Below are positions 27,169-41,429 of a DNA stretch of 64,000 bases, piece by piece. The first letter of the stretch is position 1; each line of letters starts with the position of its first letter. The notes under the pieces were generated by a model. That model saw nothing but the letters and a program-made list of their open reading frames with translations. It had not been told where the DNA came from and did not search any database. The stretch covers positions 160,001-224,000 of the forward strand of contig JBBRLX010000003.1 of the NCBI GenBank assembly GCA_038231135.1, in the 5' to 3' direction. Both the position numbers and the translations under genes were made by a program. Origin of the DNA: Candidatus Eiseniibacteriota bacterium (GTDB taxonomy: Bacteria; Eisenbacteria; RBG-16-71-46).

Positions 27169-28299
27169 GTGGCGCGCGCCAGACTGCTGGTGGTCGACGA
27201 CGAGCCGGGCATGCTGCGCGCGGTGGAGCGCGTGCTCGCCCCGCTCTACGACGTGACGACGTCGCGGCTGCCGGTGCTGGCGCTCGAGGTCGCCTCCGCG
27301 CCGGGAGCGACGTTCGACGTCGCGATCCTCGACGTGCGCATGCCCGGCATGGACGGTTTCGCGCTGATGGCCCGGCTCGCGGTCCTGCAGCCCGGCATCA
27401 GCGTGATCCTGATGACCGGCAGCGCCGACGAGCGTGACGCCCGGCTGGTGCGGGCGATCCGCGAGCGGGCGTTCTTCTTCCTGACGAAGCCGTTCGACCG
27501 CGACGTGCTGCTCACGCTCGTCGAGCGCTGCCTCGAGTTGCGGCGGCTCGACGTCGCGAACCGGGCTCACGTCGCCGAGCTCGAATCGGAGCTGGCGGCC
27601 GCGCGCGTGTTCCAGGAGAGCCTGCTGCCGCCGCGGCACGGCGAAGGTGGCGGCGTGCGGATCGCCGCGTACTGGGAGCCGACGGAGACGCTGGGCGGAG
27701 ACTTCTTCGACTACACGCTCGACGGCACCGGAGCGACGGTGCTGATGGCCGACGTGTCGGGACACGGCGCGCCGGCGGCCATGCTGGCGGGCATGGTGAA
27801 ACTGGCGTTCCGCGCCGTGGCGGGGAAGGTGCAGGCAGCCCAGGTGATGGATCGCGTCGGCGGGTGCGTGAAGCTGTTCCCGCCCGACCGGCACCTGACC
27901 GCGATCGCGGTGCAGTTCGGGCCGGTGCCGGGCGCCGTGAAGTACGTGAACGCGGGGCACCCGCCCGGGCTCCTGGTCCACAGCGGCCGCATCGAACGGC
28001 TGGAGTCGTCGGAGGCGCTGCTGCATCCGGCATTGCAGCGGAACACCGACACGGTCCCCTGCGAAGCGCGGCTCGAACCCGGCGACCGGCTGGTGCTCTA
28101 CACCGACGGCATCACCGAGACCCGCAGCCCCGCCGAGGAGGAGTTCGGCGCCGAGCGACTGGAGCGGGCGGTGATTGCCGCCGCGTCCGAGAGCCTCGAC
28201 AACCTGCTCCACCGGGTGCGCGCCGAGTTGGAGACGTTCCGCGACGGGCGGCCCGCGTCGGACGACGTCACGATGCTGGTGCTGGAGCGGACCGCGTAG
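27169..28299 (+). CDS. Response regulator with PP2C/SpoIIE (RsbU-like) phosphatase output
   Basis: LLVVDDE, DVRMPGMDG, TKPF; GGDFFD, ADVSGHG, NAGHP, YTDGITE, DDVT. Confidence 0.92.
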   Translation: MARARLLVVDDEPGMLRAVERVLAPLYDVTTSRLPVLALEVASAPGATFDVAILDVRMPGMDGFALMARLAVLQPGISVILMTGSADERDARLVRAIRERAFFFLTKPFDRDVLLTLVERCLELRRLDVANRAHVAELESELAAARVFQESLLPPRHGEGGGVRIAAYWEPTETLGGDFFDYTLDGTGATVLMADVSGHGAPAAMLAGMVKLAFRAVAGKVQAAQVMDRVGGCVKLFPPDRHLTAIAVQFGPVPGAVKYVNAGHPPGLLVHSGRIERLESSEALLHPALQRNTDTVPCEARLEPGDRLVLYTDGITETRSPAEEEFGAERLERAVIAAASESLDNLLHRVRAELETFRDGRPASDDVTMLVLERTA

Positions 28300-30344: not shown

Positions 30345-32699
30345 GTGTTTCGTTTCTCGACGCGATTCGCGGCCCTGCTCGCCGTTTGCATCACGCTGTC
30401 GCAGTCTCACCCGGCCATGGCAGGCACCGTTCGATTCGCAACGCACGTCCGACCCACCGCCACGGCGGCCGGGCATGCGATCGGCACGAGCATCGCGGCA
30501 CGGGGCGCCATTCAACTCACTCCGTTCAGCTCGGCCCTGTTCGCCGGGGATTCGTTCTTCGGCACGGCGTCCCTCCAGAACCCGAATGGGGATCCGCTCG
30601 CCGGCGCGGCCGTCCAATTCACGATCTTCGGCGGGCCGAACGCCGGGAACCCGGGGAGCGGCCCCGCGGTTACCGACGCGGACGGCCTGGCCGGTTTCGA
30701 CTACATGAGCACGCGCAACGGCGTCGACTCGCTGGTCGCGACGTTCGTCGATGCGTCGGGGACGCTGCAGACCTCGAACGTCATTACGGTCGAATGGGCC
30801 GGCGGCGACGACTGTCCCGCGTTCACGGCGCCGACGCCGGCGGACCGGTCCACGGTCGTGGTCCACGCGGGAGATCCCATCGCGCTGGATGTACGCGCCA
30901 CCGACGCGAATCCGGGGGACACAGTGACGCTGGCCGCACTCGGCCTGCCGGCATCCGCCACGTTCAGCCCGGGAGAGGGCAATCCGGCGAGCGGCAGCTT
31001 CCGGTGGACGCCGTCCTATGCGGACCTGGGCCGGCATGTTCTCACGTTCAACGCGTCCGACAACGCCGCCGCGGCGTGCACCACGTCGACCGGCGTGACG
31101 ATCGATGTGCAATGCCCGCTCAACAACCGGGCCCCGGAGTTCACGGCGCCGGCCTGCGGCGCGACGGTGGTGACGCTCGCCGGCCAGCTGGTGACGCTGC
31201 CGGTCGCGGTGCGGGACGCCGACACGGGCGATGCGGTGACCCTGACGGCGTCGGGGCCGGGAGCGCTCGTCGCCGTGACGCCGGGAAATCCGGCGTCGGG
31301 CCGGTATGAATGGCGAACCGGCGCGGCCGACATCGGGGTGCACGTGATCACGCTCACCGCGACGGACCGGTGTGGCGGCACGTCGGATTGCAGCACCACG
31401 GTGCGTGTGGACGACCCGCAGGTGTGCCCGCGGTTCATAGCGCCCACGCCGGCGGAGGGTGCGGTGCTGGCGGCCACCGCGGGTGCCGAGTTCTCGCTGC
31501 CGGTGCGCGCGGCCGACGCGAACGCCGGTGACCGGTTGACGCTGAGCGTCGACGGAGCGCCCGCGGTGACGTTTACGACGTCGCCCGGCAATCCCGTGGA
31601 CGGCACGCTCTTGTGGGCGCCCACGCGGGCAGACCTCGGGCAGCACGCGATCACGTTCACGGTGATCGATCACGCCGCCACGCCATGCGCGGTGTCACGC
31701 ACCGTCCAGGTGCTCGTCGCGTGCCCGGCGGGCAATGCGGCGCCCGTGTTCACGGCGCCGGCGTGCGGCGCCACGCTCGAAGCCGCGGCCGGCCAGCCGC
31801 TGTCGTTCCCGGTGGCCGCTGCAGACCCCGACGCCGGCGATGCCGTGACGCTCGCGATGACGGGAGCGGGCGCGCTGACGATCGTGCCCGGGAATCCCCC
31901 GACGGCCCGGTTCGACTGGACGCCAGCCGCTGCGGATTCCGGGTCGCGCACGCTGGCGTTCACGGCGACCGATCGCTGCAGCCTCACGACCCGCTGCGAG
32001 GTCACGGTGCACGTGATGGCGAACCGCCCGCCCGACGGCTCGGCCGTGCGACCGTCGATCAGCGTGCTGTGGCCCGCGAACCACAAGCTGGTCCCCGTCA
32101 CGCTCACCGGCGCGACCGATCCCGACGGCGACTCGGTTCGCGTCGAGATCACCGGGATCACCCAGGACGAGCCGCTGACCGGAGGCAAGGGCGCGGAGTG
32201 CGGCGATGCGGTGATCGCGGCCGGAGTCCCCAGCCTGCGCGCCGAACGCTCGGGCGACAACGGCCGGGTGTACGAGATTCGCTACCGGGCGACGGATGGC
32301 AGGGGCGGATTCTGCGAGGGCGCGGTGCACGTGTGCGTGCCCCACGACAACGGTTCCGGCGGAGGCTGTGTCGACGACGGCCAGCGGTTCTCGTCGCTGG
32401 GTCTGTGCGGGCCGTCCTCGTCGGCGGTGATGAATCCGGTGACGGCGGTGAGCCTCGACGTGGCCGACCTGTCGAGCCGCGACGTGACGCTCGAGTACGC
32501 GCTGCCGGCCGATGCCGACGTGCGAATCGCGGTCTACGACATCACCGGCCGCCGGCTCGCGCTGCTCGAGGATGCCCGCCGGGCTCAGGGCACGTACGCC
32601 GTGACGTGGCACGCGGGTGGCCTCGCACGTGGCGTGTACTACTGCCGGATGACCGCGGGGGATCGCACGGTGACGCGGGCCGTGGTGCTCGCGCGCTGA
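30345..32699 (+). CDS. Secreted multi-Ig/cadherin-like repeat protein with C-terminal FlgD/T9SS-like domain
   Basis: AGGAGG RBS, signal peptide (PAMA), Ig-like domain, four ~100-aa repeats, LWPANHK domain, C-terminal VRIAVYDITGRRL...LARGVYYCRM. Confidence 0.85.
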   Translation: MFRFSTRFAALLAVCITLSQSHPAMAGTVRFATHVRPTATAAGHAIGTSIAARGAIQLTPFSSALFAGDSFFGTASLQNPNGDPLAGAAVQFTIFGGPNAGNPGSGPAVTDADGLAGFDYMSTRNGVDSLVATFVDASGTLQTSNVITVEWAGGDDCPAFTAPTPADRSTVVVHAGDPIALDVRATDANPGDTVTLAALGLPASATFSPGEGNPASGSFRWTPSYADLGRHVLTFNASDNAAAACTTSTGVTIDVQCPLNNRAPEFTAPACGATVVTLAGQLVTLPVAVRDADTGDAVTLTASGPGALVAVTPGNPASGRYEWRTGAADIGVHVITLTATDRCGGTSDCSTTVRVDDPQVCPRFIAPTPAEGAVLAATAGAEFSLPVRAADANAGDRLTLSVDGAPAVTFTTSPGNPVDGTLLWAPTRADLGQHAITFTVIDHAATPCAVSRTVQVLVACPAGNAAPVFTAPACGATLEAAAGQPLSFPVAAADPDAGDAVTLAMTGAGALTIVPGNPPTARFDWTPAAADSGSRTLAFTATDRCSLTTRCEVTVHVMANRPPDGSAVRPSISVLWPANHKLVPVTLTGATDPDGDSVRVEITGITQDEPLTGGKGAECGDAVIAAGVPSLRAERSGDNGRVYEIRYRATDGRGGFCEGAVHVCVPHDNGSGGGCVDDGQRFSSLGLCGPSSSAVMNPVTAVSLDVADLSSRDVTLEYALPADADVRIAVYDITGRRLALLEDARRAQGTYAVTWHAGGLARGVYYCRMTAGDRTVTRAVVLAR

Positions 32700-32759: not shown

Positions 32760-33536
32760 CTACGCCCCGAGCCGTTCCCGGAGTTCCCGCGCCCGCACGC
32801 GGCTCACCGGCACCTCGGTGCGCGCAGCGTCCTTGAGCTGCAGCCGGTAGGTGCCGGCGAAGCCGGGCTTGAGCGCGACGGCGAAGTCCAGGTTCACGAT
32901 CGCGTTGCGATGCACGCGGGCGAACCGGCGCGGATCGAGCTTCGCCTCGAGCTGGTCGAGCGTGAAGTTGACGTAGTGGCGGTCGCCGTCGGTGGCCGCG
33001 AACACCAGCTTGTCCTCGGCGCCGAACCACAGCACGTCGTCGGATTTCAGGATCAACTGGCGCACGCCGACGCGCACCGTGAAGCGCTCGAGCGGGTCCG
33101 TGGCGTCGCGCCGGCCGCGATCGAGACCCTGCAGCAGCGCGTCGAGCCGCGCCGTGAGGTCCTGGGGACGCGCGAGGTCGCGCCGCGCGCGATCCAGCGC
33201 CTCGATCAGGCGCCCGGCCCGGAATGGCTTGAGCAGATAGTCGCAGGCGTTCTCCTCGAACGCCTGGACCGCATAGTGATCGAACGCCGTGAGGAACACG
33301 ACCGCCGGGCGCGGGTCGAGCGACCGCAGCAGCTGGAAGCCGTCCTCGCCCGGCATCTGGATGTCGAGCAGCAGCAGGTCGGGGCGCGATTCCGCGATCC
33401 GCTCGCGTGCCTCCGCCGCCGACCCGGCCTCGCCGGTGACGCTCACGCCCTCGGCCCCGTCGAGCATGCGCCGCGTGCGCGCCCGCGCCAGCGGCTCGTC
33501 GTCCACGATCAGGATGCGCAGCGGCGTCACGGTCAT
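32760..33536 (-). CDS. LytTR family DNA-binding response regulator
   Basis: IVDDEPLAR, LDIQMPGEDGF, TAFDHYAVQAFE, DYLLKP, FARVHRNAIVN, VPVSR. Confidence 0.95.
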   Translation of the reverse strand: MTVTPLRILIVDDEPLARARTRRMLDGAEGVSVTGEAGSAAEARERIAESRPDLLLLDIQMPGEDGFQLLRSLDPRPAVVFLTAFDHYAVQAFEENACDYLLKPFRAGRLIEALDRARRDLARPQDLTARLDALLQGLDRGRRDATDPLERFTVRVGVRQLILKSDDVLWFGAEDKLVFAATDGDRHYVNFTLDQLEAKLDPRRFARVHRNAIVNLDFAVALKPGFAGTYRLQLKDAARTEVPVSRVRARELRERLGA

Positions 33537-33555
33537 CGGAACCCCGGAATGCCGG

Positions 33556-35793
33556 CTACCACGTCAGGCCGAATCCCACGACGGCGATCCGCCGGCTGAA
33601 GTAGGACAGGTTGTCGGTACGCTGCGAGTAGTCGGAATTGTAGACGTAGTCGAGCACGTTGTGGACATCGAGCACGTTCATGCCCTCCACGTAGAATACA
33701 CACGTGCTGCTGCCGGGCAGCGAGCCCATCGCGGGCAGCGAGAACAGCTTCGTGAGCCGCACGTCGAGCCGCCGGTAGTCCGGCAGCCGAGCGGACTGGT
33801 TCTCGCCCTCGACCGGCCGCCAGATGCCGCGGCCGGCATCGTAGAACCGGCCGATCACCGGCGTATACGCGCGCCCGGTGGAATAGCTGTAGCGGCCGCC
33901 CACCTGCCACAGCCGGGGCAGCGCCCACTCGAGCACCAGGGTTCCGGAGTGCGGCACGCCGTAGGCCGACGGCTCCTCGCGTGGGTCGTCGCGCTCGCGC
34001 CGGCGGCTGTCCTGATAGCCATACGAGATCCAGCCGGACACGGGCCCGAGCTGGCCCCGCACGATCGCGTCCACGCCGCGCGCGTAGCCGGTGCCGTCGC
34101 TCGAGTAGAACGTGCTGTCCGACTGGGTGACGAGATGCCGGTAGTCCTTGCGATAGGCTTCGACACGGGCGTTCCAGACCGCGGTGTTCCACTCGTAGCC
34201 GGCGATCCAGTGATCGGCTTCGAGCGGGATCAGGTGGGGATTGCCGTAGACCGGGTCCAGGAATTCCGTATCGGCCGGCTGGTGATAGCGCCCGGTCGCG
34301 ACCCGCAGCGTCTGGTGATCGTCGATCCGCCACGCCACCGACGCGCGCGGGTCGAACGTCCAGCGGTCGGCCAGCGACACGTGATCGGCGCGGGCGCCGA
34401 GCGTGGCGTAGATCGGTCCGACGAGGCGCACCTTGTCCTCGACGTAGGCGCCAGGCACGTCCTGGGAGGGCCGCGTGGCGCGGAACCGCACCGGTGCGCC
34501 CGCGGCGAGATCGGAGCTGTCGGCGGGCACGGCGCCGCTGAGGTCATCCTGCCGGCGGCGCCAGTTGCCGCCGAACGACACCTCATGGCGCGGCGACGCG
34601 GCCCATACCGCGTCCACGTTCGCCTGCTCGTGGGCTTCGCGATCGCTCACGTCCGTCGGACCGAACGCCCACTGCGACCGGTAGCGCTGGATCGACACCT
34701 GGCCGTGGATCGCGAGAACGCCCAGCGCCGCCTCCTGAAACTGGAGCGCGAGCAGGTGATTGTGCGAGTGGCGGTCGTAGAGTCCCTGGAAGTTGCCGCT
34801 CTGCGTGACGAGCCCGACGCGATCGGCGGACCCCAGGTAGAGCAGCGACACGCGGCCGGTCGGGGAATGGCGGTACAGCAGCCGCACGGCGCCGTCGGCG
34901 CTCGCGGGCGCGTTCACGTAGCCGAGCCGGGTGGGGTAGAGGCGCTCGAGCAGCTTCACGTCCGAACCACGCACGGTGCCGACCAGCGACAGCTTGTCCG
35001 GGATCAGCGCCCAGCTGCCCGACACGTTCCCACCCACGATGTTCGCGCCCGCCGAGATCGTGCGCAGGTTCATGGGGTCCGCCGTCTCGATGTCGAGCAC
35101 GCCCGACAGCACGCCGCCGTACTTCGCCGAGAACCCGCCGCTCGAGAAGAACGCGCTCTTGAGCATGTAGGAATCGAACGCCGAGAACAGGCCACCCGAG
35201 GCGCCCTCGTAGTGGTAGGGGTGGCCGATCTCGCCGCCATCGAGCCGGATCAGCGTCTCGCGCGGATCGCCGCCGCGAACGTACAGCGCAGCGCCTTCGT
35301 CGGGGGCGTTGATGCTCGGCAGCGCCCGCAGCGACTGGAACACGTCCGCGGCGCCGCCGGGAGTGGTGACGACGTCCATGCGCCGCAACATGGCGCCTTC
35401 GCTCTTGCCGGCCTTGCCGAACGTGGACGCCGCGACCACGACCTCGGCCACCGGCACCGGCTCCTCGGCGAGCACGATGCGGACGCGGGCCGGTGCGCCG
35501 GCGATCACGGCCTGCGCCTGTCCCGGCTGATAGCCGACCTGGGAGCACACGATCGTGACCGGTCCGTCGGGCAGCTCGAGTGAGAAGGCCCCTGCGGTGT
35601 CGGTGACGGCGCCGAGTTTGAGCGCCGCCACCGTCACGTTCGCGTATTCGATCGCCCGGCCGCGGTGATCCACGACGCTGCCGGTGAGCCGCGCGGCCAG
35701 CGCCGGCGTCACGGCCGCCGCCAGGATGATGGCGGCCGCGAACGCGCTCGCGACGATCGCGCGGGTTCCGGCGTTCGGGTTCTGCTGCGTCAA
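33556..35793 (-). CDS. TonB-dependent receptor with N-terminal carboxypeptidase-regulatory-like domain
   Basis: Inferred TTG start overlapping the upstream stop; signal peptide; plug motifs LYVRGG and GGFSAKYGGVLSGVLDI; barrel motifs FDPRAS, GYARG, RLPDYRRLD; C-terminal Trp. Confidence 0.9.
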   Translation of the reverse strand: MTQQNPNAGTRAIVASAFAAAIILAAAVTPALAARLTGSVVDHRGRAIEYANVTVAALKLGAVTDTAGAFSLELPDGPVTIVCSQVGYQPGQAQAVIAGAPARVRIVLAEEPVPVAEVVVAASTFGKAGKSEGAMLRRMDVVTTPGGAADVFQSLRALPSINAPDEGAALYVRGGDPRETLIRLDGGEIGHPYHYEGASGGLFSAFDSYMLKSAFFSSGGFSAKYGGVLSGVLDIETADPMNLRTISAGANIVGGNVSGSWALIPDKLSLVGTVRGSDVKLLERLYPTRLGYVNAPASADGAVRLLYRHSPTGRVSLLYLGSADRVGLVTQSGNFQGLYDRHSHNHLLALQFQEAALGVLAIHGQVSIQRYRSQWAFGPTDVSDREAHEQANVDAVWAASPRHEVSFGGNWRRRQDDLSGAVPADSSDLAAGAPVRFRATRPSQDVPGAYVEDKVRLVGPIYATLGARADHVSLADRWTFDPRASVAWRIDDHQTLRVATGRYHQPADTEFLDPVYGNPHLIPLEADHWIAGYEWNTAVWNARVEAYRKDYRHLVTQSDSTFYSSDGTGYARGVDAIVRGQLGPVSGWISYGYQDSRRRERDDPREEPSAYGVPHSGTLVLEWALPRLWQVGGRYSYSTGRAYTPVIGRFYDAGRGIWRPVEGENQSARLPDYRRLDVRLTKLFSLPAMGSLPGSSTCVFYVEGMNVLDVHNVLDYVYNSDYSQRTDNLSYFSRRIAVVGFGLTW

Positions 35794-36665
35794 GGCTTGG
35801 CCTTCGCCGCGTGATCGAGCTCCGGCAGCAGCGTGTACTTCACCCAGCCGTTGGACGGATTCGCCGCCAGCGCCTTGTCGTAGAACGCGCGCGCCTGGTC
35901 GTAGAGAGCGAGTTCGACGCACGCCCGGCCGGCCCACAGGAAGGCGTCGTCGGCGCCCCAGCGGATCGCGTCGGGGCCGCCGGCCTTCTCGGCCGCATAC
36001 AACTGCTGCGCATGGGCGAGCCGGACGAGCGCCTTGTCGGGGCCGCCGCCCACGAACCGCGGCACGTGATAGGTGTTGATGCCGTCGAGCAGCGCCACCC
36101 GCGGGTTCGCGGGCTCCAGTGCCGCCGCGCGCCCGAGGGTCTCGACGATCTGGGGCCCCAGCGCCATGGCGCGCGTGGGATCCAGGCTGATCTCGAGTCC
36201 CTGCAGCCCGCCCTCGAGCGCGATCGCGTCGGCGAACTTGGGCTGGATTGCGATCGCCCGGTCGAGCTGGTCGAGCCCGTCCTTGCAGTAGCGGGCGGCG
36301 GCTTTCGCATCCTTCATCAGGCGCGGAACCAGCCGGTAGTCGGCGAGCGCCACCCAGTAGTGGAGGGCGGCCGACTTGGGGCTGGCCGCGGCCAGCGCCT
36401 CGAGCTGCGCGCGGGCCGCGAGGATCGAATCGGTACTGCCATAGACCGCGCGCATCAGCGCGATGCGCGCGGTCGCGAGGTCGGCCGGCGCCGCGGGCGC
36501 CGTGGCGGCCGCGACCACGGTCGAGTCCCGCGCCGTGGATGCGGCGACGGCGGCCGCCGTCGGGGTGGCCGCGGTGGCGGTGACGGCCGTGCAGGCGCAC
36601 GGAGGGTTCGCCGCGCCGGCGAGTGCGGCGGCGGCAACGATGGACAGAACGCGAAGCAACGTCAT
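35790..36665 (-). CDS. Exported TPR/helical-repeat protein
   Basis: Signal-like N-terminus, Ala/Thr linker, TPR-like repeats (LDRAIAIQPKFADA, LGRAAALEPANPRV, YDKALAANPSNGW); 4-nt overlaps with both neighbours. Confidence 0.82.
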   Translation of the reverse strand: MTLLRVLSIVAAAALAGAANPPCACTAVTATAATPTAAAVAASTARDSTVVAAATAPAAPADLATARIALMRAVYGSTDSILAARAQLEALAAASPKSAALHYWVALADYRLVPRLMKDAKAAARYCKDGLDQLDRAIAIQPKFADAIALEGGLQGLEISLDPTRAMALGPQIVETLGRAAALEPANPRVALLDGINTYHVPRFVGGGPDKALVRLAHAQQLYAAEKAGGPDAIRWGADDAFLWAGRACVELALYDQARAFYDKALAANPSNGWVKYTLLPELDHAAKAKP

Positions 36666-37792
36666 GAGGGTCTCCAGGCTGGTGTGGTGGTGGATGTGGG
36701 TCGGAGTGGCAGGGTGATCGTGATGCGCGCGCCGTGGCCGGGAGCGCTCGTGATCTCGAGCGCGTGCGGCGGCCCGGCGGCGCGCAGGCGCTCGCGCACC
36801 GAGTGGAGTCCGAACCCGTTGCCGCCGGGATCGGCAGCGGCGCTCATGCCGGGGCCGTCGTCCACGACCTCGAGCACCAGCACGTCGCCGTCGCGGCGGG
36901 CCACGATGCCGATCGTGGCGCCCTCCGCCCGCGGCGACACGGCGTAGCGCACGGCATTCTCGACCAGCGGCTGCAGCATCAGGCCGGGCACGGCGAAGCC
37001 GTCGAGGCCAGGCTCGATCGATTCCTGGATGCGCAGCCGGGTCCCGAACCGGGTGCGCTCGATCTCGAGGTACGCGCGCACGAACTCCAGCTCGTCGGTG
37101 AGCGGGCGATGTTCCTGCTCCGAGGCGCGCAGCGTGTGGCGGAACATGTCGGCCAGCCGCGTGACGGTGTCCTCGGCCTCGGCCGGCGACTCGCGCACCA
37201 GCGCGGCGATGGTGTTGAGCGTGTTGAACAGGAAGTGCGGCTGGATCTGGGCGCGCAGCGCGCGCAGCTCGGCGCTCGCCAGCTCGGCGCGCATGTGTTC
37301 GATCGCGCGTGCCCGAGTCATCGACTGGCGGTAGAACGCGATCGCGTAGGCGACGCCGCCGATGGTGATCGCGAACAGGACCGAATAGGCCCCCGAGCGC
37401 AGCACCGCCTCGGGGCTGCCGAGGAACCCCGGCATCACGAACGCCTGGATGAGCGCCGCGGCGACGTAGGAGCTGACGACGCTCGTCACCAGGTAGGCCG
37501 GCGCCTCGATGCGGATCGGCAACACGCCCGGGCCGCGCATCCGTCGCAGCCACGGCAGCCCCCACAGCTTGAGCGCCACGAGCGCGAGCCGGATGACGTA
37601 CGCGAACACCAACGAGATCTTGAACGCGGCCCAGTACGCCGACCGTGTGCCGCCGTACAGCGTGCCGAAGAACAGCGCGAACGCGATCGCATAGAGCGGC
37701 TGCTGCCACAGCGCCTCCCACAGGCGCTGGGCCCGGCGGGGGCGGGGCGCCGGGGCGTCGTCGGCGCAGTCAGCGGTACGGGGGTTCGTCAT
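36662..37792 (-). CDS. LytS/YehU-type membrane sensor histidine kinase
   Basis: About 4 TM segments; LRAQIQPHFLFNTLNTI, LEIERTRFG, LQPLVENAVRY, DDGPG, GFGLHSVRERL. Confidence 0.94.
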   Translation of the reverse strand: MTNPRTADCADDAPAPRPRRAQRLWEALWQQPLYAIAFALFFGTLYGGTRSAYWAAFKISLVFAYVIRLALVALKLWGLPWLRRMRGPGVLPIRIEAPAYLVTSVVSSYVAAALIQAFVMPGFLGSPEAVLRSGAYSVLFAITIGGVAYAIAFYRQSMTRARAIEHMRAELASAELRALRAQIQPHFLFNTLNTIAALVRESPAEAEDTVTRLADMFRHTLRASEQEHRPLTDELEFVRAYLEIERTRFGTRLRIQESIEPGLDGFAVPGLMLQPLVENAVRYAVSPRAEGATIGIVARRDGDVLVLEVVDDGPGMSAAADPGGNGFGLHSVRERLRAAGPPHALEITSAPGHGARITITLPLRPTSTTTPAWRPS

Positions 37793-37798
37793 GACTGC

Positions 37799-37868
37799 AG
37801 CTTAGGGTCGGCCCCGCCGACCGGCTACGCCCGGGGCGATGAACGGTCGCGCGGGGCCGATGAACGGT
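37799..37868 (-). promoter_or_regulatory. LytTR-type direct repeat (ACCGTTCATCG x2, 21-bp period) plus -10 TAAGCT, likely leaderless promoter of the kinase operon
   Basis: Identical 11-mers at 37837-37847 and 37858-37868; TAAGCT at 37804-37799 lies 6 nt before the ATG at 37792. Confidence 0.8.
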
Positions 37869-37892
37869 GGCGTGGGGCGCCGAAGGCCTGCG

Positions 37893-39097
<1,205 letters not shown>

Positions 39098-39101
<4 letters not shown>

Positions 39102-39754
39102 GGCGCCAGCCGCTCCCAGGTCCACAGCTCGCCCGCGCGGCGGTAGAGTACCCGGTCGTGGAGGCGGTGCGGGCGGTTCTGCCAGAACTCGATCGTGTCC
39201 GGGGCCAGCCGGTAGCCGCCCCAGTGTGCCGGACGCGCGAGCGGGGTGTGACGATGCCGTTCGATCAACTCGCGGACGCCAAGCTCCAGCTCCGCGCGAC
39301 TCGTGATGGGACGGCTCTGCGGCGAGGCCGCGGCGCTCAGACGGCTCTCCAGCGGCCGGGAGGCGAAATAGGCGTCGGACTCCGCGGCGGTCACCCGGCG
39401 CACCGCGCCCTCCACACGCACCTGGCGTCCCAGCGGATGCCAGTAGAACACCAGCGCCGCGAACGGATTCTCCGCCAGTTCCTGGCCCTTGCGGCTCTCG
39501 TAGTTCGAGTAAAACGTGAAGCCGTGTGAGTCGGCGCCTTTCAGCAGCACCATGCGCGCCGACGGACGTCCGCTCGCATCCGCGGTGGCCAGCGTCATGC
39601 TCTCGGCGTCGGGTACGCGCGCCCGCGCTTGCGTGAACCATTCATCGAACAACGCAAAGGGGCCCGGGGGAAGGGGTTCGCAATCCAGATCGCCTGTCAG
39701 GAGCTGCGGCCGGGCGGGGGATGGCGTGGGGTCCGGAGCGTCGCCGTGCGTCAT
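39098..39754 (-). CDS. pdxH: Pyridoxine/pyridoxamine 5'-phosphate oxidase
   Basis: [71 protein letters not shown]. Confidence 0.96.
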
Positions 39755-39792
39755 GGATCTCCTCGGGAAGGCGGGAATCGAACCGGCGATGC

Positions 39793-39861
39793 ACGATAGC
39801 CCAGCATCCGGGTGCGCACCAGCGCCGGCCGCTGAACCGTCGCCCGGCACCGACGAACGGT
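39793..39861 (-). promoter_or_regulatory. Second LytTR-type repeat pair (ACCGTTCGTCG ... ACGGTTCAGCG, 21-bp period) plus -10 TATCGT upstream of pdxH
   Basis: 11-mers at 39851-39861 and 39830-39840 (1 and 2 mismatches to the first pair); -10 at 39798-39793; repeat-to--10 offset 32 nt here versus 33 nt in the first promoter. Confidence 0.68.
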
Positions 39862-39959: not shown

Positions 39960-40586
39960 ATGAAGAAGTCATTGATGCTGGTGTTGCTTGCGTTGTCGTT
40001 GTCGGCTGCCGCGGCGTCCGCGTCGCCCGGCGAGTGGATCGGTGGAGTTCAGGGTGGCGTGCACATTCCATCGAGCGACTACGGGGATCGCGCGAAGGCC
40101 GGGTGGGTCGGCGGCGCTCTCCTGGACTACATGTTGTCCGACATGGTCGCCGTCGGCGCGCAGGTCGACTTCAACAGCACCAAGGCCAAAGACGAGTACG
40201 TCAATGCCGTAAATGTACTTATTGCCCCCGACCACGTAGATGACATCAAGCTCACGATTCTCAACTATGGCGTGCACGGCAACCTCTATTTCATGAGAGA
40301 GGGAATTGTGCGGCCATATGTCGCAGCAACCGTTGGAGCCTATACTTCAAAGATCAAGACGTCAGGTGGAACAGCTTCTGGTTCGACCGACAATCGCACC
40401 GTCATGGGTTTCGGGGGTGGCGTCGGCATCAAGTTTCAGTCTCCCGGAAATCCCGTCGGGTTCGGAATCGAAGGGACTTATCAGAAGGTTGGCGAGGCCT
40501 TCATCAAAGGGGGCATTGACGCCGACTTCATCAACGTCGTGGGCAAGGTTACGTTTTCGTTCTCAGACAAGTCCCAGGCTCACTGA
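39960..40586 (+). CDS. Outer membrane beta-barrel protein (small 8-stranded type)
   Basis: GGAGGAG RBS, MKKSL signal peptide, alternating amphipathic strands, RPYV, GFGGGVG, terminal VTFSF strand. Confidence 0.85.
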   Translation: MKKSLMLVLLALSLSAAAASASPGEWIGGVQGGVHIPSSDYGDRAKAGWVGGALLDYMLSDMVAVGAQVDFNSTKAKDEYVNAVNVLIAPDHVDDIKLTILNYGVHGNLYFMREGIVRPYVAATVGAYTSKIKTSGGTASGSTDNRTVMGFGGGVGIKFQSPGNPVGFGIEGTYQKVGEAFIKGGIDADFINVVGKVTFSFSDKSQAH

Positions 40587-40598
40587 AGTCTTGCATGC

Positions 40599-40640
40599 CA
40601 ACGGCCCGCTCGGAAGCTCTCTGAGCGGGCCGTTGATTTT
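40599..40640 (+). terminator. Rho-independent terminator between convergent genes
   Basis: CAACGGCCCGCTC (40599-40611) pairs perfectly with GAGCGGGCCGTTG (40623-40635), followed by ATTTT. Confidence 0.8.
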
Positions 40641-40661
40641 ACCGTTACTCGTTCCTGCAGC

Positions 40662-41045
40662 CTAGTTTCGAGTCCAGGTTTTCTGGACGGATGGCGCTTC
40701 ACCAACATGAGAGTTGAGCCGTCGCTCCAGCACAAGGGTGTCCCGCTCTTTCCGGAGAATGAGCATTTCCACCGACGTGTTTCGACTGATGGCGAGGGTC
40801 AGCATTCCATCTCCCTGGATCGAACCGACGATCGGAAGGGCATTCGCCATCCCCGAAATGGTCCGGGCATCTTCCTGATAGAGCTCCAAGATGCTGTCTG
40901 GGCCACTCGATCGCCACGTTCCCGTAAAAGGAAGCGCCCGCTCGCTCTCAGTGGGAGAGCGGCGGGCGATGTTGGTCTTCGTGTCGCAATTCGTGAAAAT
41001 CAGAATAGCCATTCCAATCATTGTAAGTCGTAAACCGCGGATCAC
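40662..41045 (-). CDS. Hypothetical exported protein, possible lipoprotein
   Basis: Hydrophobic N-terminus ending FTNC; FTGTWRS beta-rich body; 6 nt downstream of the PEGA gene. Confidence 0.55.
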   Translation of the reverse strand: MIRGLRLTMIGMAILIFTNCDTKTNIARRSPTESERALPFTGTWRSSGPDSILELYQEDARTISGMANALPIVGSIQGDGMLTLAISRNTSVEMLILRKERDTLVLERRLNSHVGEAPSVQKTWTRN

Positions 41046-41051
41046 GTCAGA

Positions 41052-41429
41052 TCAGCTTTTCTTTGTAACGAGATTCTGATTCACGACCTTCGCATCAAGG
41101 CGATACCATGAGCCGGTTGCTGCGTCGATGATGACCGGAACCAGCCCGCCAAGTATATCCAGAACAACCCAGCCCGCACCGACGGAATTGTTGATCGTGT
41201 ATGTGGCGTCCTCGAACCCCTCGTGTTTGAACGTGATTATGTGAGATTTCTTGTTCGAGAGGTCCAAAGACACCGGCGTGGTGCCCATCTTGTTCCCGTC
41301 CAGCCAAACTTCAGCTCCCGACGGAGTCGTTTGCATAGGCACCGCCGATGTCTTGCTCGCGAAAAGGGCGGCGCAGCTGTTTAGGCCCAACAACAACACG
41401 ACGAGTGCGGCGGCCATGAACGATCGCAT
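41052..41429 (-). CDS. PEGA-domain lipoprotein
   Basis: Lipobox LNSC; TTPSGAEVWLDGNKMGTTP; KHEGF; C-terminal hydrophobic hairpin with IIDAATGSWY. Confidence 0.85.
   Translation of the reverse strand: MRSFMAAALVVLLLGLNSCAALFASKTSAVPMQTTPSGAEVWLDGNKMGTTPVSLDLSNKKSHIITFKHEGFEDATYTINNSVGAGWVVLDILGGLVPVIIDAATGSWYRLDAKVVNQNLVTKKS

Follow-up and report, generated by a model that had tools for sequence, protein, structure and literature searches.

We analysed a 64,000-nucleotide stretch of DNA from a Candidatus Eiseniibacteriota bacterium (assembly GCA_038231135.1, contig JBBRLX010000003.1, positions 160,001 to 224,000), which is called the window below, and focused on a cluster of six genes on its minus strand at 32760..39861. 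The cluster encodes a LytS-type histidine kinase, a LytTR-family response regulator, an exported protein of the tetratricopeptide repeat (TPR) fold, a TonB-dependent receptor, a membrane-anchored phosphatase and PdxH. We slightly favored the reading that the kinase-regulator pair senses a hydrophobic molecule within the inner membrane and induces a HusA-like binder, a TonB-dependent transporter and an ABC-2 pump of the ATP-binding cassette (ABC) class. This reading was built on gene order, homologies, operator positions and the genes downstream of the operator, all of which were seen directly.

Results

The order and the junctions of the six genes were confirmed at the above positions. The pdxH gene overlapped the phosphatase gene by GTGA, the kinase gene overlapped the TPR gene by ATGA and the TPR gene overlapped the receptor gene by TTGA, and 19 nucleotides separated the receptor gene from the LytTR gene. 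The kinase (376 residues, 36662..37792; minus strand, as for all features of the cluster) carried PF06580 and a HATPase domain, with His186 and the N, G1 and G2 boxes present, including the motifs DDGPG and GFG. The regulator (258 residues, 32760..33536) carried PF00072 and PF04397, with the receiver residues D12, D13, D58, T83 and K103. The two were assigned to the LytS/LytTR class on PF06580 plus HATPase with the His, and on a receiver plus LytTR domain with the Asp. The best NCBIfam match of the regulator was BtsR, which was below the cut-off (149 vs 246).

The kinase began with a membrane domain (37298..37747) that has no Pfam family, and a paralogous domain (38607..39056) was found in the phosphatase. 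The phosphatase (402 residues, 37893..39101) belonged to the SpoIIE/PP2C family (PF07228, E = 1e-48), and its metal-binding Asp motifs were present (D202, D220, D339, D392/393). The GTG start at 39101 was required for the overlap with pdxH, and the next in-frame start would truncate the first conserved helix. Homology of the N-terminal 150 residues of the two proteins was found by BLASTP (36% identity over 146 residues, E = 6e-26) and by profile-profile comparison of 32 and 23 sequences (probability 100%, E = 1.1e-60). The model of the domain showed four long helices with a predicted local distance difference test (pLDDT) score of 93.5, and its loops of 3-7 residues would leave little surface for a periplasmic partner. 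Foldseek gave no match at E ≤ 0.001, the best VIA match had Z = 8.2, and ESM Atlas returned unnamed clusters only. A profile search of 1.84 billion proteins yielded 148 relatives. Of the 56 longer relatives scanned, 13 had no family, and wherever an output was assigned, it was SpoIIE or His_kinase. This domain family, which has no name, occurs joined to a His kinase or to a PP2C phosphatase. In a tree of 55 sensor domains, the kinase and phosphatase copies grouped apart (3 changes vs 17.7 with shuffled labels; deep nodes unresolved, bootstrap unsettled), and no within-genome gene conversion between the copies was evident. One protein that combines fragments of PNPOx, sensor and SpoIIE (P0241) was excluded, as it probably stems from a frameshift or from the assembly.

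A direct repeat of ACCGTTCRTC with a period of 21 bp preceded both transcription units. Putative operator 1 (37838..37868) lay before the kinase gene and consisted of two perfect ACCGTTCATC boxes without mismatch, and putative operator 2 (39831..39861) lay before pdxH with 2 mismatches at the same period. They scored 37.0 and 28.0 against a background 99.9th percentile of 11.0; the weight matrix was trained on these same sites, so the scores are not independent, and the consensus was derived from the window alone. The gene arrangement, the shared membrane domain and the common repeat had all been described in the first-pass annotation of the window and held up here. In the whole 4.09-Mb genome, three sites with at most 2 mismatches were found at period 21, compared with none or one at any other period between 17 and 26. 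The pattern search across the order gave 93 matches in 50 of 71 genomes vs 3 for the reversed control, and a site was present in 47/55 genomes with the sensor domain vs 3/16 without it. The core of the box was the AlgR box CCGTTCGTC. The third site of the genome (G000:C35:42295-42325) was outside the window and was followed by a -10-like element, a probably leaderless start and genes for an ABC-2 ATPase (313 residues) and permease (285 residues). Its orthologous counterpart was present in a genome of the same genus (L145).

Over 42 aligned sites, the downstream positions were also biased, with T at +41 in 30, A at +65 in 31 and T at +69 in 31. The TAnnnT-like element at +64 to +69 was assigned as the -10, with a weak -35 upstream and a spacer of 17 bp. 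In the window, the -10-like hexamer TAAGCT (37799..37804) was 6 bases 5' of the kinase ATG, and operator 2 was followed by the -10-like TATCGT at 39793-39798. An ATG was found at +76 in 12 of 45 rows, this kinase among them, which suggested leaderless transcripts from the operator-linked promoters. Such spacing of repeat and promoter is the layout expected of a LytTR activator. A consensus sigma-70 scan did not call these promoters, which is expected of activator-dependent promoters and counts neither for nor against them. A variant repeat of the GCCGTTCGTC type preceded a secreted rubrerythrin-like gene in one genus (L119, L122, L129) and may belong to another LytTR regulator.

To describe the regulon, 40 regions around operator matches were used, mostly picked from those not tied to the cluster, with 41 site rows. 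An ABC-2 ATPase and permease followed the operator in 23 rows and sensor genes in 6, so that the ABC-2 exporter is, by position of the sites, the most conserved distal target of the putative operator; the first-pass annotation could not have seen it. DUF2269 membrane-protein genes were found directly behind the operator at L137:3376-3840 and L143:1365-1898. Two further sites preceded HlyD and ABC efflux operons (L117, L127), and the exporters gave their best scores, under the cut-off, to DrrA/DrrB-type models. Both observations would also fit a regulon of envelope stress or antibiotic efflux, in which the ligand is not a porphyrin but a lipid, lipopeptide or other amphiphile and the HusA fold serves as a carrier of hydrophobic compounds in general. 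We regarded this possibility as somewhat doubtful, and the HusA-like TPR protein itself gave evidence on both sides.

This protein (291 residues, 35790..36665) had a signal peptide and weak Pfam TPR matches. Its AlphaFold model (pLDDT 95.8) matched HusA of Porphyromonas gingivalis best in Foldseek (E = 4.6e-6, template modeling scores 0.69/0.78) and in VIA (Z = 20.5, root-mean-square deviation 2.7, 189 aligned), where the TPR proteins 2pl2 and 7cc7 tied with it within 1 Z. Its sequence profile matched HusA with E = 7e-31 over profile positions 39-219, and HusA was the only natural protein matched over the full length, which speaks against a ligand other than porphyrin. HusA binds haem as well as porphyrins without metal. 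Binding takes place in a hydrophobic groove through L123, V124, W130 and Y164, with no coordination of iron (PMC6173696), and a Flavobacterium homolog also binds porphyrins (10.64898/2026.04.07.716877). Thus, both tested members of the family bind porphyrins, which again disfavors the lipid-type ligand. On the other side, the near folds in VIA included lipid carriers, namely the TPAT transporter subunit 8g52 (Z = 19.3), the bacterial sterol transporter 7t1s (Z = 17.6) and TatT 3u64 (Z = 17.1). In addition, a HusA-like gene on a Chondrinema plasmid (L155:7875-8537) lay within a fatty-acid synthase cluster, next to a lantibiotic dehydratase, an M50 peptidase and a TonB receptor, and this context suggested that the HusA fold may carry lipid or lipopeptide. 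ESM Atlas gave generic TPR clusters only.

Among 64 aligned relatives, the position of Y164 was H, Y or F in 54 and the position of V124 was hydrophobic (with an alignment gap here). The signal peptides of the relatives, with N-termini read by eye, were of the ordinary cleaved Ala-X-Ala type, and this copy had Cys23 and Cys25 without a clear lipobox by eye. The HusA-like protein is therefore likely periplasmic. P. gingivalis HusA has a lipoprotein anchor and may face the periplasm (PMC12094164). In the hus operon, husD (membrane) and husC (winged helix) lie upstream of husB and husA (PMC11681262; PMC12094164). Neither a husC nor a husD counterpart was found within this cluster, and LytS/LytTR stood in their place.

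The receptor (745 residues, 33556..35793) had a CarboxypepD-like N-terminal extension, a plug and a barrel, and it was called HusB-like by gene context. The Pfam scan gave no match to an STN signalling domain, and no sigma or anti-sigma gene was found within the cluster. The plug residue His191 was kept in 61/64 relatives, and no His was found between the FRAP-like and NPNL-like motifs. The predicted complex of receptor and HusA-like protein scored 0.38 vs 0.00 for the best control; the runs agreed on at least 67% of contacts and the partner pLDDT was at least 84. In the benchmark, scores up to 0.60 covered 18 of 157 solved pairs and both mismatches that passed (2/215), and the predicted complex was weakly supported. 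Since the TPR protein was a HusA homolog and the receptor family also occurred in loci resembling husD-husC-husA-husB, the pair is, on homology and gene context, a Hus-like module. The TPR protein and receptor had been called undescribed in the first-pass annotation, and this label must give way to kinship with the described Hus system. Its view that the receptor is not wired in the manner of extracytoplasmic function (ECF) sigma factors agreed with the lack of an STN match.

The TPR gene was found in 37 of 60 relatives, two weak matches included. At 37 fetched loci, the kinase gene was upstream in 35, the receptor gene downstream in 36 and the regulator gene after the receptor in 33, and all gaps except one (L034) were contig ends. 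The conserved order bore out the expected co-occurrence in other genomes. The operator headed the unit in all 32 scoreable loci, before the kinase gene in 26 and before a phosphatase gene running into the kinase gene in 6. One genome (G032) had two full copies of the cluster (L045, L047). The operator thus lay in front of the own genes of the kinase-regulator pair and is probably autoregulatory. This spoke for the proposed autoregulatory loop in the kinase unit. The repeat upstream of pdxH was confined to this genome.

pdxH (39098..39754) was the only copy found in the genome and exceeded the cut-off of the equivalog TIGR00558 (251.7 vs 180, NCBIfam), and a HugZ-like haem protein was rejected on this basis. 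The gene was upstream in 12 relative loci and directly 3' of the regulator in 5. The operator preceded it in none of 11 scoreable relatives with pdxH upstream, and the gene was absent from 40 distant loci described below, so its proposed membership of the regulon was not sustained. As judged by operator position, pdxH is a stable neighbor that was captured into the unit in this genome. Directly upstream of pdxH, the stretch at 39960-41429 of the window had a GC content of 55-60% vs about 70% and opened with an outer-membrane beta-barrel gene. A local insertion may explain why the operator precedes pdxH in this genome only. Of 31 relative loci with room upstream, 22 had the phosphatase there, and 18 of these 22 phosphatases were preceded by an operator of their own.

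The loss survey covered 20 regions that surround sensor-domain matches without a link to the TPR gene. Six of them had the order pdxH-operator-kinase-regulator, and the gap from kinase to regulator measured only about 60-120 bases. No strong HusA-like match was found in these six genomes, five of which came from one genus and were not independent. The operator was also on the exporter in two of the six (G147, G026). The phosphatase was frequently detached from the cluster, and then usually had no operator.

We then sampled two further phyla around G160 and G161; 12/201 and 34/121 of their genomes, respectively, had HusA-like genes, and 40 loci were fetched. Of these loci, 30 had the receptor nearby, 21 the kinase and 20 the regulator. 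An ABC-2 exporter was near in 11 and often stood between the receptor and the HusA-like gene. The four-helix domain of the distant kinases was distantly similar (probability 76%, E = 2e-5; locally shuffled controls ≤ 3%). Neither phosphatase nor pdxH was found in any of the 40 loci. Judged from this distribution, the phosphatase is an optional part that occurs in this lineage only. Three loci (L157, L158, L159) had tandem HusA-like duplicates with an ABC-2 exporter and a receptor and no kinase at the locus. On the Bacteroidota plasmid of Chondrinema, HusA-like, receptor, kinase and LytTR genes occurred together, in line with the Bacteroidota clusters that the first-pass annotation had named; a metagenome scan with the Chondrinema receptor gave no matches.

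Receptor loci from metagenomes were also compared, with 38 distant loci taken from the best 80 of at least 363 confirmed matches. Of the 38, 17 had a winged-helix gene (HTH_34 in the seed), in most cases together with a gene for a membrane protein, and the kinase was missing from all 17. Kinase and regulator were found in 4 of the 38, none with the winged-helix gene. Within the same sample, 18 loci had at least 3 kb on each side, and of these 13 had a HusA-like gene, 7 the winged-helix pair, 5 an ABC-2 exporter and 3 kinase and regulator. At L287, L294 and L295, the membrane-protein and winged-helix pair was directly before the receptor, as in P. gingivalis. Because the receptor and HusA-like protein were cleanly lost in six genomes and their regulators were swapped elsewhere, the pair is, on this comparative evidence, regulated cargo, and the kinase, regulator and exporter are the core.

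These results bear on the model of the first-pass annotation, in which an imported ligand or the TPR protein engages both sensors. Receptor and TPR protein would thereby relay a signal through the envelope, and this signal would split into one branch of transcription and one of dephosphorylation. The tight overlaps, the constant kinase-TPR-receptor-regulator order and the homology of the twin sensors are in its favor, as are the frequent protein binding of TPR-like folds (PMC6173696) and the possible periplasmic face of HusA. However, the operator, kinase and regulator persisted after loss of the pair in the six genomes, and the pair was found elsewhere under the unrelated winged-helix regulator. 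The lack of an STN match, the short sensor loops and the patchy, often detached phosphatase also argued against it. We considered such a relay very unlikely.

Porphyrin is the only ligand shown for the HusA family. Porphyrin or haem was tentatively the best named ligand, at somewhat less than balanced confidence. With it comes a further explanation, in which the cluster is a plain Hus-type uptake operon that imports porphyrin or haem as a nutrient; the imported ligand would act back on the kinase, and the exporter would serve only as a safety valve. HusA homology and the conserved plug His191 agreed with this. In addition, cytochrome oxidase subunit I was present in this genome, and hemA, hemB, ferrochelatase and HmuY were not found in it (93% complete), so an outside source of haem would be needed if uptake were the function. 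hemB was found in only 10/57 genomes of this family, many of which may be haem auxotrophs. However, the module was not associated with the absence of hemB, and its most conserved distal target was an exporter rather than an importer and was kept when the pair was lost. In the partially annotated loci, neither an importer of the inner membrane nor a gene for haem degradation was seen, and the receptor lacked the His between the two motifs. Deletion of husAB showed no major role in haem uptake or supply of P. gingivalis (PMC12094164) and barely affected its haem supply (PMC11681262). An uptake operon was an unlikely explanation.

Two neighboring plus-strand genes of the window are also recorded. 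The gene at 30345-32699 was convergent with the cluster and encoded a secreted protein of 784 residues, in which Ig-like domains are repeated and an FlgD-type domain lies at the C-terminus. The gene at 27169-28299 encoded a second SpoIIE phosphatase, with a receiver domain; at least 8 SpoIIE paralogs were present in the genome.

Discussion

We propose the following sequence of events for sensing within the membrane. The four-helix domain, with almost no periplasmic loop, would detect the ligand in the bilayer. Phosphate would then pass from His186 of the kinase to Asp58 of the LytTR regulator. The regulator would bind the two boxes just upstream of the weak -35 and activate transcription, including that of its own operon, which would give positive feedback. 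The exporter would move the ligand out of the membrane, and the periplasmic HusA-like protein would hold it in its hydrophobic groove and pass it to or from the receptor, in either direction. The phosphatase would be an optional second output that bears a copy of the same sensor. NatK/NatR-NatAB and LnrJK-LnrLMN are presumably sensor-exporter pairs, although our literature search did not confirm this. A precedent for the logic is HssRS, which senses membrane haem and induces HrtBA efflux (PMC11237747).

Several observations weigh against sensing of a hydrophobic ligand with induced export and binding. The sensor domain had no invariant His or Cys. HusA W130 and L123 were not kept in the 64 relatives, with A, G or M at the first position and small residues at the second, within the limits of the alignment gap. 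Other genes followed the operator in 12 of the 41 rows, and the distal exporter belonged to two different ABC-2 subtypes across relatives. The genome had four LytS/LytTR pairs, and thus only its position and co-distribution link the operator to this regulator. Finally, hemB was found in 13/43 genomes with the module vs 10/28 without it in the order and in 11/32 vs 29/89 in a second phylum; in both comparisons, related genomes are not independent. Haem auxotrophy as the driver of the module was rejected for lack of association with hemB.

A bolder variant was also considered, namely an export route free of TolC. In this variant, the ABC-2 pump would expel a hydrophobic compound out of the inner membrane, a periplasmic HusA-fold shuttle would carry it and a TonB-dependent barrel run outward would release it; the intramembrane LytS-type sensor would induce the route, and its duplicate would drive the Ser/Thr phosphatase. 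Outward transport through a TonB-dependent barrel has at least one precedent, Oar (PMC6434023). We judged this route improbable. If true, it would recast the Hus system of Porphyromonas as detoxification or export rather than uptake, and it would give a ligand class for AlgZ-like four-helix sensors.

Compared with known systems, the cluster is closest in content to Hus of P. gingivalis (HusA PG2227, HusB PG2226, HusC PG2225, HusD PG2224). Both have a HusA-fold protein beside a TonB-dependent receptor, and the receptor family here also occurs with the membrane-protein and winged-helix pair. However, HusC and HusD regulate there and LytS/LytTR here, the protein here has an extra C-terminal TPR and lacks W130, no lipobox was seen in its relatives, and an ABC-2 exporter belongs to the regulon. 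A study of HusA reported its homologues to be limited to Bacteroidetes (PMC6173696), whereas those described here occur in other phyla. TonB-dependent transducers of the FecA/FecR/FecI type work with ECF sigma and anti-sigma factors. The present cluster is like them in that a TonB-dependent receptor is encoded with regulators, but it differs in that its receptor has no STN match, that it lacks genes for sigma and anti-sigma factors and that its regulators persist in genomes without the receptor.

The sensor and regulator resemble AlgZ (FimS)/AlgR of Pseudomonas aeruginosa in layout, with a LytS-type kinase, about 150 N-terminal residues forming four membrane helices, and a LytTR regulator (PMC4064291). 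The core box is common to both. According to the same source, AlgZ has no G1, F and G2 boxes, whereas the kinase here has G1 and G2. AlgR boxes are scattered, whereas a tandem pair with a fixed 21-bp period stands beside the -35 here, and the targets differ. HssRS-HrtBA of Staphylococcus aureus is alike in working, as a hydrophobic ligand sensed in the membrane leads to an efflux ABC transporter (PMC11237747). However, HssS is of the HisKA type with an extracellular domain, and here a PF06580 kinase without such a domain is combined with LytTR, an ABC-2 pump and two outer-envelope partners. No description of HusA with LytTR, of LytTR with receptor, kinase and TPR protein, or of LytTR with this box was found in the literature searched, with most subscription papers and supplements outside the search.

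The role of Hus itself is unsettled, as deletion of husAB barely affects the supply of haem in P. gingivalis (PMC12094164, PMC11681262). These results indicated that the HusAB module is widespread outside Bacteroidota and is served by two interchangeable regulators, both with a membrane-embedded element. The module was repeatedly co-regulated or co-encoded with an ABC-2 exporter, which offers a testable alternative role, the clearing of a hydrophobic toxin. In a 2014 review, the signal sensed by AlgZ, a kinase of the same layout, was still unknown. With the operator, kinase and regulator defined here, a simple reporter assay could be used to screen for what a four-helix sensor of the LytS type responds to.

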